Positions 10,796 to 52,478 of a stretch of DNA of 64,000 bases are shown piece after piece. The translations under genes were made by a program, and so were the position numbers. The notes beneath the pieces were generated by a model. It was given only the letters and a program-made list of their open reading frames with translations. It ran no database searches and was not told the DNA's origin. Location: NCBI GenBank assembly GCA_965217775.1, contig CBDCJH010000002.1:4000001-4064000 (forward strand), in the 5' to 3' direction. The DNA is from Acidobacteriota bacterium (GTDB taxonomy: Bacteria; Acidobacteriota; UBA6911; RPQK01; JAJDTT01). Position 1 is the first letter of the stretch. The number at the start of each line of letters is the position of its first letter.

Positions 10796-10955
10796 CAGTC
10801 CGTGGTGAAAGTCCCGCGAGCACCGAGACCGGTCCTGCGCCCGCCGGACAAGGCGCAACGGAGGGAGCATACCGGGAGTATGTGAGCCGATAGCAACGCA
10901 GTCCGCGCACGATGCAGGGACGGTCGAATGCCGTGACGACTTTTGCCACGGGCTG
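10796..10955. mobile_element. Palindromic MITE-like element, family A, copy 1 (160 bp, intergenic)
   Basis: Ends CAGTCCGTGGTGAAAGTC / GACTTTTGCCACGGGCTG; GTAC duplicated at 10792-10795 and 10956-10959; near-identical copies at 36475 and 52320. Confidence 0.9.
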
Positions 10956-11061: not shown

Positions 11062-12078
11062 ATGCGGTTCAGCGCAGTCGAAACCATGTTCCCCGTCGTT
11101 GTTCAGGCGGGTCTTCTACTGATGGCCTCGGGTCCCCTTTGGGCCCAGGATGATTCTTCCTTTGCTCTCCATACCTTCAATCACGATGATCGGAGGATTC
11201 GCTACCTGGACCAGGGCACAGGCAGGGTGTTGTTTCTCGTCCATGGCATGGCCGCCGATCACCGGGACTGGAAGTTCCAGATTCCGGTTCTGACGAGAAA
11301 GTACCGGGTGGTGGCCCTAGGAGCCTGCGCCGCAGAAATCAATCTACTGCGAAAGCGGGGAATCGGTCCATATTTCCCCGATTTCTCGGCGAATAGAACG
11401 ACTATGCACCTCCAAATCGTGAAAATCTGGCCTCGATTCCCCACTTTCTCGCTACGATCATTTCTACGGCGCAGACTCCTAGATCTTGCCTTCTTCGGCG
11501 AGAGCGATCCTGGACCGCTACCCCACACGACCCGCAATCACGCCCGGGATTGCCTGGCGCTGCTGGATCATCTGGCCATTGAGAAGGCGGTCCTGATGGG
11601 ACACAGTCTGGGGTCTTGGATCATCCGGGAAATGTACGGGATGCGCCCCCGGTTGGCGGAAGCACTGGTGGATGTGGACGGCGGCGGTCTGGCCGACCCC
11701 GCCATGGAGCTTCTGGGTCTCGAAAAGGGAATCTACGGCCCCGGGTCGCCCCCTTATCCCAGTGCCTTCAACCTGAAGCGGTTAAGACTTCACAAAGAGC
11801 GCGTCGCGCTCCTGAGAGAGCAGTTCGGAGGGCGAAACCCAAGGGCCCAAAGAGACCGTTCTCCTGCGGGCAAGTGGTGCCGGGTCCCGGTCTTGGTCGT
11901 CCTCTGCTCTTACGGAGCCTTCTCGCAGGATGACGTCCCGGAGGGATGGGTGGAAACGAACCTCCCGTCCACCGACGCCAGTCTGGTGGTGATCCGCGAA
12001 TCGGGGCACTGGGTGACGCTGGAACGGCCCCAAGAGCTCAACCGAATCCTGCTGGGGTTCTTGAGCCGGCTACCCTGA
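11062..12078 (+). CDS. Alpha/beta hydrolase (signal peptide) carrying a 54-aa in-frame insert
   Basis: FLVHG oxyanion motif, GHSLG nucleophile elbow, SGHW catalytic His; RVVAL|DLAFFGES motif split by the insert. Confidence 0.85.
   Translation: MRFSAVETMFPVVVQAGLLLMASGPLWAQDDSSFALHTFNHDDRRIRYLDQGTGRVLFLVHGMAADHRDWKFQIPVLTRKYRVVALGACAAEINLLRKRGIGPYFPDFSANRTTMHLQIVKIWPRFPTFSLRSFLRRRLLDLAFFGESDPGPLPHTTRNHARDCLALLDHLAIEKAVLMGHSLGSWIIREMYGMRPRLAEALVDVDGGGLADPAMELLGLEKGIYGPGSPPYPSAFNLKRLRLHKERVALLREQFGGRNPRAQRDRSPAGKWCRVPVLVVLCSYGAFSQDDVPEGWVETNLPSTDASLVVIRESGHWVTLERPQELNRILLGFLSRLP
11321..11478. mobile_element. Palindromic MITE-like element, family B (158 bp), in frame within the hydrolase gene
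   Basis: TIRs GAGCCTGCGCCGCAGAAAT / ATTTCTACGGCGCAGACTC; CTAG duplicated at 11317-11320 and 11479-11482; nested internal inverted repeats. Confidence 0.9.
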
Positions 12079-21518: not shown

Positions 21519-21611
21519 GGTCCCTCGACCACGACCCGAAGGTTCGACGAGGAAGAAAGGCAGGCCCGAGCGCCCCTGTTCCCTCCCTCGAAGGTCCAGG
21601 TCAATGGAAAT

Positions 21612-21796
21612 GACGCCGGCAGGTCTTCGGACTCACGGGCAATCGGCTGTGGCCGATCCTACTGGCCGTCGCTTCCCAACTCCTCGGAGCCAGTGCTATG
21701 ACGGCGGTCGTTCCCGTTTACCGCTGCGGGGCAGTCCCGGACTTTCACCGGGTTCCCTCTTGCCGCTCCGGCTGGCCGGAGCACCAACGCGAAGTC
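21612..21796 (-). ncRNA. Cobalamin riboswitch
   Basis: Minus strand AAGAGGGAACCCGGTGAAAGTCCGGGACTGCCCCGCAGCGGT...GCACTGG...GGGAAG...GAGTCCGAAGACCTGCC (B12 box), directly upstream of the btu-like operon; boundaries approximate. Confidence 0.93.
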
Positions 21797-21911
21797 AACG
21801 TAACCGAAGCAGCAGGCCGGGTCAAGCCCGCAGGGGCCGTTGACCACGGTTCCAACCGCAACCGGATGGGCTTCTGCCCCCGATGGCGGCGGCTGGGATA
21901 GAATCCGCATC

Positions 21912-34757: not shown

Positions 34758-35020
34758 CCGTGAACGACTGGTCTGCACGAAGGTCGGATTAGGCCATTTG
34801 TCGGAGAGACGCCGAAGAATTACCCGAGCACGGTACACGGTATTTTGACACCTGGACACCCGACCATTTGGTTTGAACGTATGGGCCGTAGATTACGACA
34901 TCCATTCCACCACTGTCAATCGCCGGAGTTGGTCGCAGACCGGCTCGCGCGTCAGCCTTTGCTCCACGCTTCGGACCAACCTATCATGCCTTGGCCCGCC
35001 GGCTGACTCCGGAGTCGATG

Positions 35021-35127
35021 ACATGTTGGACAACCGGTCGAACCCGCGCCGCGCCCTGGTCACCGGGGGCGCCAGCGGCTTCGGGCACGCGACTGCCGCG
35101 GCCCTGCTGGACCGCGCCCACCGGGTG
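35021..35127 (+). repeat. Degenerate copy of the 5' end of the SDR gene at 36984-37090
   Basis: 107-bp direct repeat, about 94/107 identical by manual alignment; encodes MLDNRSNPRRALVTGGASGFG then diverges. Confidence 0.85.
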
Positions 35128-35301
35128 GCCAGCTATCTATGGTCCGTACCGGTTCAGCGCATTCGGGACGGTCAGGTAACAATGGATGGTTGGCAAGGAA
35201 TTCCTGAGGTGTCGAGAGGTCGGGCGGGTGGCCTCGGATGCCAGTGGCGGTAACATTGGAACCGCTGTTGCAGCGCGAAGCGGATGTCGTCCACCAACGC
35301 C

Positions 35302-35441: not shown

Positions 35442-35481
35442 AGTAGAAGTGCAGTGACGACTCTTGTGAAGGGCCGGCCGT

Positions 35482-36828
35482 TCAACTCGCACCATTGCCG
35501 GCAAACTTGGCGAGCAATGGGATGGATTCGACCCCCATCTCGAAATAGTGGGGATCTTTCTCTATTCCGATCGACTCGTATCCCAACGCCTCGGCTGCCG
35601 CCAGCGTAGATCCTGCACCCGCAAAGGGATCGACGACCACACCTTCCCCCAAAGGAAGAACGCCCCTCACAAGCTGCCGCAAGAACTGTTGCGGCTTCAG
35701 GCTGGGGTGCGGAGCCAGTGCCCTTTCATTTTTTCTGGTCGGCGAGGATCTAATGACATCGCCAAACGGTTTCGCGTCCGAGGGCCGCCGGAAGCCCCCC
35801 GTTTTCCACTTCCGAAGATTGTCCTGTATCCTCCCTTCGACTGGTTTGCGGAACAGAATCCACGGTTCCCACATCGATCTAGGCATGACGCTGACGTCCT
35901 TGAACTCCTGGTGGGCTGCTTTTGGCCGATCCCCTCCCCGCATGGTCATCACCAGCCGGATAATTTCACCCCGTCGTTCCAACCCGGCATCGGACAGCGC
36001 ATTGGAGACGATGAATGAGAGCAGCGGATTGGACGCAACGATCACATTCGCCCCAGGTACCAACTTGGGGGCCAGGAGGCGCGCCCAGACAAAGAAAAAC
36101 GTGCGAATCTGCTCTCGCTGTGAATCGGTCAGCGTAGTGAAGAGAGGCAGCGGCGATCTTTTGTGTCCATCGAAGGAAGGAGGAATTCGCCAGACTCCTC
36201 CCTTGCCCCGTCTCAGTTTCCGTTGCTCCTTCGGAGAGTATTCCTGCAGACCGTAGGGCGGGTCCGTAACTACGGCGTGGATGGTCGCATCGGTCCGGCG
36301 ATCCAGCCAATCAAAACAGTCGCCATGGACCAGTGTCGCCATCCCATATCGAAATGGCTCATTCCAAAGTTCTGTACTGTTCAGGCGACGCAGCCAACTG
36401 CCAACGTAACCTTTGCGAAGCCGGTAGAAACCCCGTTTCTCCCTACAGAACAGATCTGGTGTATTCAGTCTCAACAGTCCGTGGTGAAAGTCCCGCGAGC
36501 ACCGAGACCGTTCCTGCGCCCGCCGGACAAGGCGCGATTCGGGTGCATACCGGGAGTATGTGCCCGAATCGCAACGCCGTCCGCCGGGATGCAGGGACGG
36601 TCGAATGCCGTGATGACTTTTGCCACGGGCTGTCAAGTAAGATCGCACCGAGGATTCAGGCGTTGAGCCCATGACTCGAGTCACTCTTTGCTCGATCTGC
36701 TGCACTGACAGGGCCTCGGATGTCAGATTCAGAATCTGGAGGATGGCGTCACGGACCCGCCCGGGAGCAGGTCTGGCCTTCTTGCTGCTGATACCGATGA
36801 AACATCCGATAAGTCGTCCAGACGTCAT
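35482..36828 (-). CDS. Site-specific DNA methyltransferase (N4-C/N6-A, beta class) with N-terminal HTH-like region and a 54-aa in-frame insert
   Basis: VVTDPPY precedes HPSLKP and VDPFAGAGST; SSVRSYL|RLNTP split by the element A copy; start uncertain. Confidence 0.88.
   Translation of the reverse strand: MTSGRLIGCFIGISSKKARPAPGRVRDAILQILNLTSEALSVQQIEQRVTRVMGSTPESSVRSYLTARGKSHHGIRPSLHPGGRRCDSGTYSRYAPESRLVRRAQERSRCSRDFHHGLLRLNTPDLFCREKRGFYRLRKGYVGSWLRRLNSTELWNEPFRYGMATLVHGDCFDWLDRRTDATIHAVVTDPPYGLQEYSPKEQRKLRRGKGGVWRIPPSFDGHKRSPLPLFTTLTDSQREQIRTFFFVWARLLAPKLVPGANVIVASNPLLSFIVSNALSDAGLERRGEIIRLVMTMRGGDRPKAAHQEFKDVSVMPRSMWEPWILFRKPVEGRIQDNLRKWKTGGFRRPSDAKPFGDVIRSSPTRKNERALAPHPSLKPQQFLRQLVRGVLPLGEGVVVDPFAGAGSTLAAAEALGYESIGIEKDPHYFEMGVESIPLLAKFAGNGAS
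36475..36632. mobile_element. Palindromic MITE-like element, family A, copy 2 (158 bp), in frame within the methyltransferase gene
   Basis: Same TIRs as copy 1; TCAA duplicated at 36471-36474 and 36633-36636. Confidence 0.92.
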
Positions 36829-36976
36829 TTGTCAAGGACATGTGGGGTTCAGTACATTTGAGACGGTCAGGTAGCGGACGGAAATCGGGCAAGAATGGGG
36901 CGAGGCATCCGAAGACTGACGGAACGAGCCAAAGACGTCCTGAACTCGACTGCTCGCTCCGCAAGGTCATCGGGTA

Positions 36977-37786
36977 ATGGATAACATGTCGGACAACCGG
37001 TCCAACCCACGCCGCGTCCTGGTCACCGGGGGCGCCAGCGGCTTCGGACTCGCTATTGCCCGGGCACTGCTGAACCGCGGCCACCGGGTGTGCATCGGTG
37101 ACATCGACTCCCAAGAACTGAAGCGTGCTGGCCAGGCCTTGGACCATCCCCATCTGCTCCCGATCCTGCTCGATGTCACATCCAGGCAGTCTGCGAGAGA
37201 CGCGGTGGAGGCCTGCCGGACACGCTTCGGTGGTCTGGATACGCTCATCAATTCGGCAGGCGTCATCCACATGACCGCTCTGGAGGAGATCACCGAGGAA
37301 GAGTGGGATCACGTCATCGACGTGGACCTGAAAGGCACGTTTCTGTGCAGCCAGGCAGCCGCGCCCCTGTTGCGCCGGAGCGGACGGGGCCGTATCGTCA
37401 ACATCGGTTCGGATGCCGCCAGAATCGGTTGTCCGCAGATCGTGCCCTACTGTGCGGCGAAATTCGGCGTCGTGGGATTGACCAAATCCCTGGCGGCCGA
37501 GCTTGCCGCCGATGGCGTGACCGTCAACTGTGTGAGCCCGGTCGGGGTCTCCACCACCGGGATGGGGCAATTCGTACTTCAACGGAAGATTGAACTCAGC
37601 GGACAGGCGCCGCAAGACATCCTGGCCGCGACGGCGGCGGAGATCCCACTGCAGCGCAACCCGACCACGGCGGACATCGTTCATGCGATCCTGTTCTTTC
37701 TGGCCGAGGAGTCGGCCTTTCTGACCGGAGTCGTCCTGGACGTGGACGGCGGAATGCTGAGCATTCTCCCGGTGCGGGGGACCTGA
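36977..37786 (+). CDS. SDR family oxidoreductase
   Basis: TGGASGFG, NSAG, YCAAK, NCVSP, VDGG. Confidence 0.92.
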   Translation: MDNMSDNRSNPRRVLVTGGASGFGLAIARALLNRGHRVCIGDIDSQELKRAGQALDHPHLLPILLDVTSRQSARDAVEACRTRFGGLDTLINSAGVIHMTALEEITEEEWDHVIDVDLKGTFLCSQAAAPLLRRSGRGRIVNIGSDAARIGCPQIVPYCAAKFGVVGLTKSLAAELAADGVTVNCVSPVGVSTTGMGQFVLQRKIELSGQAPQDILAATAAEIPLQRNPTTADIVHAILFFLAEESAFLTGVVLDVDGGMLSILPVRGT

Positions 37787-52319: not shown

Positions 52320-52478
52320 CAGTCCGTGGTGAAAGTCCCGCGAGCACCGAGACCGTTCCTGCGCCCGCCGGACAAGGCGCTTCGGAGGGAGCATACCGGG
52401 AGTATGTGACCGAGTCGCAACGCAGTCCGCCGGGATGCAGGGACGGTCGAATGCCGTGACGACTTTTGCCACGGGCTG
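52320..52478. mobile_element. Palindromic MITE-like element, family A, copy 3 (159 bp, intergenic)
   Basis: Same TIRs; CTTG duplicated at 52316-52319 and 52479-52482. Confidence 0.92.

Follow-up and report, generated by a model that had tools for sequence, protein, structure and literature searches.

In-frame palindromic insertions in two protein genes of an Acidobacteriota bacterium are probably recent MITE insertions with the reading frame kept by default

Two palindromic elements that each add 54 codons in frame to a protein gene of an Acidobacteriota bacterium are best explained as MITEs of two families, A and B. In the reading that we favor, at a probability of roughly 80%, the frame is kept by default, copies inside genes are selected against, open and broken copies occur in about the neutral ratio, and the two insertions are recent. 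Both families would be non-autonomous, mobilized in trans by DDE transposases that give 4-bp duplications; A would belong to, and B would resemble, a widespread class of palindromes of ~158 bp. An insertion of 158+4 bp is a multiple of three, and stops are scarce in the GC-rich A, so that the frame often stays open by default when a copy enters a gene. Gene insertion would nevertheless be strongly selected against, so that about one copy in ten lies in a gene; these copies would be young, reside mostly in accessory hosts, and be open or broken in approximately neutral proportion.

The window is a 64,000-nucleotide stretch of the source genome, G000 (6.43 Mb; other G numbers denote genomes compared with it), whose bearer is probably sponge-associated, to judge from record and run labels. 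Its relevant features are:

10796..10955, + strand: intergenic family A MITE of 160 bp with a GTAC duplication and the older G·A-type core; the site is empty in run X11
11062..12078, + strand: alpha/beta hydrolase gene with family B insertion, 338 aa (common allele 284 aa)
11317..11320, + strand: target-site duplication CTAG, left copy, the sole CTAG of the empty hydrolase gene
11321..11478, + strand: family B palindromic MITE, 158 bp, in the hydrolase gene
11389..11410, no strand: central hairpin core of B, its center 78-79 bp from either end, as in A-type elements
11479..11482, + strand: target-site duplication CTAG, right copy
35482..36828, - strand: N6/N4 DNA methyltransferase (MTase) gene, with the insertion N-terminal, ahead of the catalytic domain that Pfam assigns to residues 183-432
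36471..36474, + strand: target-site duplication TCAA (TTGA in mRNA sense), left copy
36475..36632, + strand: family A MITE (A copy 2), 158 bp, young "converted-core" haplotype with 46 identical copies, open in 5/6 frames
36542..36563, no strand: A copy 2, central hairpin core in the perfectly paired form
36633..36636, + strand: target-site duplication TCAA, right copy
52320..52478, + strand: family A MITE of 159 bp, flanked by a CTTG duplication and located between genes

Both gene insertions consist of a 158-bp element and a 4-bp duplication and add 162 bp (54 codons) free of stops, as a sequence-only reading of this DNA had reported. Its other direct observations were borne out as well: the duplication starts at codon position 1 in the hydrolase and in the MTase, the central hairpins of the two elements read the same way, and the intergenic A copies of the window measure 160 and 159 bp. 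Exactly these 54 residues are absent from hydrolase orthologues in G009 and G014 (L006, L007) and from MTase orthologues in G005 and G008 (L020, L021). At least five open frames, the number present in the MTase copy of A, are uncommon by chance, being reached by 72 of 3000 dinucleotide shuffles of A; the hydrolase copy of B is open in two of six (forward phase 1 and reverse phase 2).

Other observations in the window include a cobalamin riboswitch at 21601-21803 on the minus strand (107.5 bits) and a decayed family A right end immediately beyond the MTase stop codon (35450-35477). Two copies of the beginning of an SDR gene, each with a short stretch upstream of it, flank the MTase (35017-35178 and 36846-37090; 87% over 111 bp), which suggests that the MTase may have arrived on a small island.

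The hydrolase and MTase cases are recent, strain-level insertions and transient alleles. Contigs of runs X11 and X13 join position 11315 to 11478, skipping exactly 162 bp, with 1-11 other differences per piece. The 338-aa form of the hydrolase occurs on a single contig. Its nearest cluster, with 15 of 16 members listed, includes ten proteins of 284 aa and none above 286 aa, and all six members whose sequences were inspected lack the insert. At the same CTAG, G007 (L008:1501-1760) carries an internally deleted B of 38 bp within a hydrolase remnant that has lost both gene ends, which could represent either inheritance from a common ancestor or an independent insertion at the one CTAG that the gene contains. 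Mini-B copies similar to this 38-bp B, between 18 and 90 bp long, are also present in G000.

From relatives, 30 young A loci (28 full length) were examined, together with 30 B loci (25 full length) that headed a list of 166 pattern matches in G005. Intragenic copies made up 3/28 of A, all open, and 2/25 of B, both broken. Where a relative's copy had a two-sided orthologue in G000, the site was empty in 3/3 intragenic cases and filled in 5/18 others. Every site that was tested for retention across species, namely those of the hydrolase, the MTase and the three intragenic copies of the relatives, is empty in orthologues; one further intragenic G000 site had no match in eight congeners. Among RNA contigs of runs X1 and X3, none crosses either junction, and these populations may carry the empty allele.

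This distribution bears on whether the inserts have been domesticated as a useful extra segment of the two enzymes, which we regard as highly improbable. Both frames are open, and the hydrolase core is predicted to survive. In an AlphaFold2 model based on a 40-sequence alignment, the core is folded and strand 81-86 forms ahead of the insert, while residues 89-141 nearly all have pLDDT <50; owing to an alignment gap over the insert, the model supports tolerance only weakly. The available text of PMC2229807 also describes an active guanylate kinase that bears a Rickettsia palindromic element (RPE). Against domestication, the hydrolase insert is a singleton allele whose site is empty in close relatives, the only other genome with B at the site (G007) has a gene remnant, and the MTase insert shares its exact sequence with 45 other copies and hence gives no sign of adaptation. 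The 54 residues of open-frame inserts are probably translated as a disordered loop. As the hydrolase insert is a singleton allele, the lineage-wide peptide-adding system that had been proposed from the two cases finds no support.

One search returned ~20 unrelated ORFs that matched solely via the insert. The elements thus create false 54-residue "domains" in predicted proteins, a point of caution for annotation. In other assemblies, B was seen in the same frame within a ParA-like protein (P0011) and at the start of an ankyrin protein (P0018).

BLAST searches of G000 located 270 loci of A, 61 of B and 54 of a third family, C, with 213, 48 and 15 full-length copies, respectively; only the latter were taken into further analysis. 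The full-length A copies are mostly 158 bp (n=149), followed by 159 bp (n=34), 160 bp (n=20) and other lengths (n=10), and those of B are 159 bp (n=34) or 158 bp (n=14). The default added length for A is therefore 162 bp, and the intergenic copies of 160 and 159 bp in the window belong to the minority. Perfect 4-bp duplications flank 154/213 A copies and 26/48 B copies, 21 of the latter with CTAG, and the duplications of both families are rich in stop triplets. A and B are short, multi-copy, bounded by terminal inverted repeats and free of any family match for the frames of the element, with target-site duplications and with empty sites in orthologues and runs, all of which are features of MITEs.

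Family C elements are ~240 bp long (15 full copies, e.g. G000:C2:847759-848000) and their central hairpin is similar, with frames that are almost all closed; none of the full copies in G000 was scored as intragenic by the codon model described below. Copies of A, B and C and IS ends are often stacked end to end within one shared 4-bp duplication, as at G000:C2:2232340-2232660 and 4957274-4957593.

To place copies relative to genes, A and B were deleted in silico and the genes re-called. Intragenic calls relied on our own trained hexamer codon model, which is ~91% sensitive with 4.5% false positives at the local threshold, and several of these calls are marginal. The 213 A copies comprise 140 in intergenic DNA, 35 that coincide with a stop codon, 12 close to the end of a gene and 26 in genes; three of the last group were dropped, leaving 23, because the retained duplication itself contains a stop. 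For B, the corresponding numbers among 48 copies are 26, 12, 4 and 6, and three of the six intragenic calls are marginal, with a negative score on one flank. Compared with simulated insertion at matching targets, genes are strongly depleted of both A (23/213 vs. 0.579 expected, p ~6e-47) and B (6/48 vs. 0.436, p ~4e-6). Conversely, stop codons are overrepresented among the sites of A (35/213 vs. 0.041 expected) and B (12/48 vs. 0.099); the two orientations are balanced at these sites (A 18:17, B 6:6).

The depletion also weighs on the suggestion that the hairpin is spliced from the RNA or bypassed by the ribosome so that the normal protein is made. Both B and A copy 2 fold as long hairpins (z of -8.1 and -9.0; 0/200 shuffles equally stable) that bring together ends flanked by 4-nt direct repeats, and some stop-carrying intragenic copies persist. 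Removal at the RNA level would make genes safe sites for insertion, yet they are about five-fold depleted of copies. The elements occur in both orientations, so that one kind of processing would have to act on different RNA strands; the joined form apparently exists as DNA in runs X11 and X13; and Rfam has no family matching A or B. We find such processing scarcely credible.

Purifying selection had been offered as the conservative explanation for in-frame insertion, and one part of it stands. The wholesale loss of intragenic copies (23/213 against 58%) speaks for it; open frames, in contrast, are not detectably favored. Fifteen of the 23 intragenic A copies read through and eight break the gene (15/23 vs. 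a neutral 0.49, p=0.14), and among copies of frame-keeping length the ratio is 15/22 against a neutral value of ~0.67 (0.487 divided by 154/213). Only one of six intragenic B copies reads through, the hydrolase copy itself.

The sequence-only reading had further held that only intragenic copies keep frame and that the same phase and orientation recur. Neither extends to the genome. Added lengths of 3n are found in 130/187 non-intragenic A copies as well as in 22/23 intragenic ones (p=0.006), and intragenic A copies occupy all six classes of phase and orientation (n=23; forward 1, 2 and 3 with 3, 4 and 3 copies, reverse 1, 2 and 3 with 2, 6 and 5). For B, a CTAG in phase 3 of a gene is a stop and the hydrolase copy is open only in forward 1 and reverse 2; its phase is therefore nearly forced once the frame is open. 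Random length, phase and orientation had been named as the pattern that would count against a special system; phase and orientation do follow it, but length does not (22/23 vs. 130/187). Restricted to copies with perfect duplications, the length contrast has p=0.13, and intragenic A copies more often belong to multi-copy haplotypes (15/23 vs. 66/187 others), so that youth explains at least part of the 3n excess. Given this excess, some selection on frame is possible; the five open frames of the MTase copy and the open state of all three intragenic A copies in relatives likewise count against the favored reading.

Host genes with a Pfam match encode transporters, outer-membrane barrels, TPR proteins, a sulfatase, an amine oxidase, AlbA/RecG-type and OB-fold proteins, and TnpB; no core housekeeping gene was seen among these Pfam-matched hosts, and many other hosts have no Pfam match. 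Broken genes with Pfam support on the flanks include those for an outer-membrane efflux protein, a TonB-type barrel, TnpB and an SDH protease. Reverse-oriented B copies break a binding-protein/permease frame (L035:1923-3500) and an efflux-channel gene (L036:581-1669). Within these copies, a purine-rich run precedes an ATG whose frame continues into the downstream half of the gene; this ATG could restart translation and so split the gene.

A partner is at hand for family A. In G000, the ends of A, 4-bp duplications and a DUF772/DDE transposase recur in two intact elements of 1475 bp and in a frameshifted relative. The best NCBIfam match of this transposase is NF033551 (IS1182; E 3e-46, 158 bits vs. 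a cut-off of 270), with weaker matches to IS5 models, and more A-ended IS elements are present in G005 and G007. The IS1182-like element (G000:C2:310455-311929 and copies) shares with A the same terminal repeats and the same kind of 4-bp duplication, but contains a 454-codon transposase frame, where A has a hairpin core between its ends. An IS1182-like element that shares its ends thus appears to be the partner of the family A MITE. For B, G000 and 30 DUF772 loci from four relatives yielded no IS with exactly matching ends. The closest is a 1770-bp DUF772 element in G006 and G007, with which B has in common the first seven terminal bases and a CTAG duplication, and we infer that B also has a partner transposase. 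B ends are present in 15/15 genomes of the family, and A-like DNA in 28/301 genomes sampled from the phylum.

The hairpin core of A is itself a target. One 1.5-kb IS110-family element is inserted at the same base of the old, unconverted A core in 4/4 copies (L033, L034):

G000:C2:1656568-1658241, 3134809-3136482, 5760147-5761892 and 6039542-6041287: IS110 copies in the A core

IS110 elements that target REP palindromes likewise use one fixed position of a dispersed palindrome, according to the accessible parts of PMC1525189 and PMC12288879; the targets described there are short REP sequences, in contrast to the core of a DDE-type MITE here. Family C ends enclose another type of IS110 beside a partial C (G000:C2:1093482-1095384, 2286450-2288239; L031, L032); the 3' end of this IS110 carries a C-like terminal repeat.

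Beyond this lineage, the A-core pattern was found, among the matches listed, in records labeled Acidobacteriota, Myxococcales and deltaproteobacteria and, as shorter hairpins, in gut Clostridia, Bacteroides and Campylobacter, and it is also present in many metagenome contigs. Short AT-rich core hairpins of ~70-130 bp were seen in Campylobacter, Bacteroides and Clostridia (L103, L128, L129, L138, L141, L146 and similar). A plasmid collection gave just short, chance-level matches to A and B, and the core was unmatched in viral contigs. Of 270 core loci among the matches listed, 199 were analyzed after leaving out 58 near an edge and 13 duplicates. Ends with a duplication could be assigned for 95 of the 199, of which 59 are 158 bp and 76 are 155-160 bp. 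These 95 elements have at least six end sequences and mostly a CTAG duplication. A length ladder of 127/137/148/158/168 bp was considered and rejected, as better end calls show that cases of 148 bp or less are mostly inner false boundaries and that the class spans 155-160 bp. Among 26 elements chosen by hand and aligned, compensatory changes support 38/50 predicted pairs, and the unpaired positions of the core are conserved G·A mismatches.

Fixed length in this class is not accompanied by conserved coding capacity, since the openness of gene-usable frames is close to that of shuffled sequences (85/236 overall). The frames usable with CTAG are open in 15, 8, 41 and 21 of 59 elements, against 0.24, 0.26, 0.46 and 0.45 for shuffles, with one class above expectation. 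The conservation of the length and of the central hairpin probably reflects transposition or hairpin geometry and would be unrelated to host codons; that 158 bp is ~15 helical turns is speculation. B has 50/158 ungapped identities to A, and a multiple alignment left the cores unaligned; the position and look of its central hairpin, and little else, suggest that it may be a member of the 158-bp class. In the literature records listed, a core class with G·A mismatches and exchanged ends is undescribed; Ogata 2002, Chen and Shapiro 2003, and Wolk 2010 may bear on it.

Two subfamilies of A coexist in G000, with 101 old cores and 108 converted cores, the latter perfectly paired and lacking two forward stops. 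Converted-core copies are 158 bp in 102/108 cases and include the 46 identical copies and the MTase insert. Two forward frames are open in 101/102 and 73/102 of them, compared with 3/46 and 1/46 of the older-core 158-bp copies. They are also more frequent in genes (18/108 vs. 5/101, p=0.008), and 13 of the 18 read through; this excess is confounded with age, as perfect duplications flank 95/108 converted copies against 58/101 with the old core.

Family A might accordingly be read as an RPE in the making, in which a young subfamily changed its core, lost two stops, kept a 3n length with 5/6 frames open, and spreads faster via milder gene insertions, the core change also altering the site of the parasitic IS110. 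The commoner occurrence of converted cores in genes, mostly open, agrees with this, as do the open frames of all three intragenic A copies in relatives and the restriction of IS110 to the unconverted core in 4/4 copies. The age difference just noted counts against it, as does the neutral read-through rate of the 158-bp intragenic copies; 90/108 converted copies lie outside gene interiors, and arm-to-arm conversion that perfects the hairpin, or escape from IS110, gives the same base changes. Age, IS110 escape and selection for open frames are inseparable on these data, and we consider the reading unlikely. A broader version is, in our judgment, similarly doubtful: a cross-phylum class of palindromic MITEs with a fixed 158 bp and a G·A core would swap ends between transposases and be parasitized at the core by IS110, and in this genus a young variant that dropped the core, escaped IS110 and became translatable in 5/6 frames would be colonizing genes as an early RPE-like system.

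A and B share some features with established RPEs and differ from them in others. The hairpin core may resemble RPE or CIR cores. Excerpts of PMC1458961 place 53/526 RPEs of R. bellii in coding genes, close to the ~11% here, and RPEs too are dispersed palindromes of ~150 bp, some in frame in protein genes; the part of PMC2635572 that was available contains nothing on RPE structure. RPEs lie within conserved genes, the peptide that they encode is conserved, and their translation has been demonstrated (PMC10969869, PMC2229807, PMC1458961, as far as their available text goes). A and B, unlike them, have accessory hosts among those examined, variable phases and peptides, and tested sites that are unshared between strains, and a third of intragenic A copies and most intragenic B copies break the gene. 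A single frame with a conserved peptide is thus not what was found, given all six classes, 8/23 broken A copies and 1/6 open B copies. NCBIfam, including its RPE models, gave no match to seven open frames of the elements at E<=1, and the RPE1 model TIGR01045 had no match in G000 in a search that lacked a positive control. The comparison with RPEs is therefore fair for the behavior of the two insertions in the window, while the genome-wide pattern departs from it: A and B behave like RPEs where the frame is open, and fail the tests of RPE membership that were run.

MITEs with a partner IS, such as Correia, RUP, ERIC, Nezha and Chunjie, offer another parallel. From the portions of PMC3184786 and PMC10969869 at hand, they share with A and B terminal inverted repeats, a duplication and the lack of a transposase, as well as a long stem-loop, empty and filled orthologous sites, and occasional in-frame fusions. 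What sets the present class apart from them is the ~85-bp core with stacked G·A mismatches and the retention of 155-160 bp while the outer 35 bp are exchanged. Bacterial MITEs are 90.4% intergenic in the accessible part of PMC11602168, and both RPEs and MITEs can fuse in frame with genes, as partial texts of PMC10969869, PMC3184786 and PMC2229807 indicate.

In-frame MITE insertions are thus already well described, and the pair in the window is real, with an ordinary cause. The two cases matter little in themselves, since such insertions are known and both alleles are transient. The more valuable lead is the conservation of length and core across unrelated ends, together with the presence of two A subfamilies in one genome. 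Together these provide a natural comparison of whether RPE-like coding competence may arise by accident and then be selected at the level of the element. If the unlikely reading of an early RPE-like system were true, such a system would have been caught at an early stage, driven by selection on the element.
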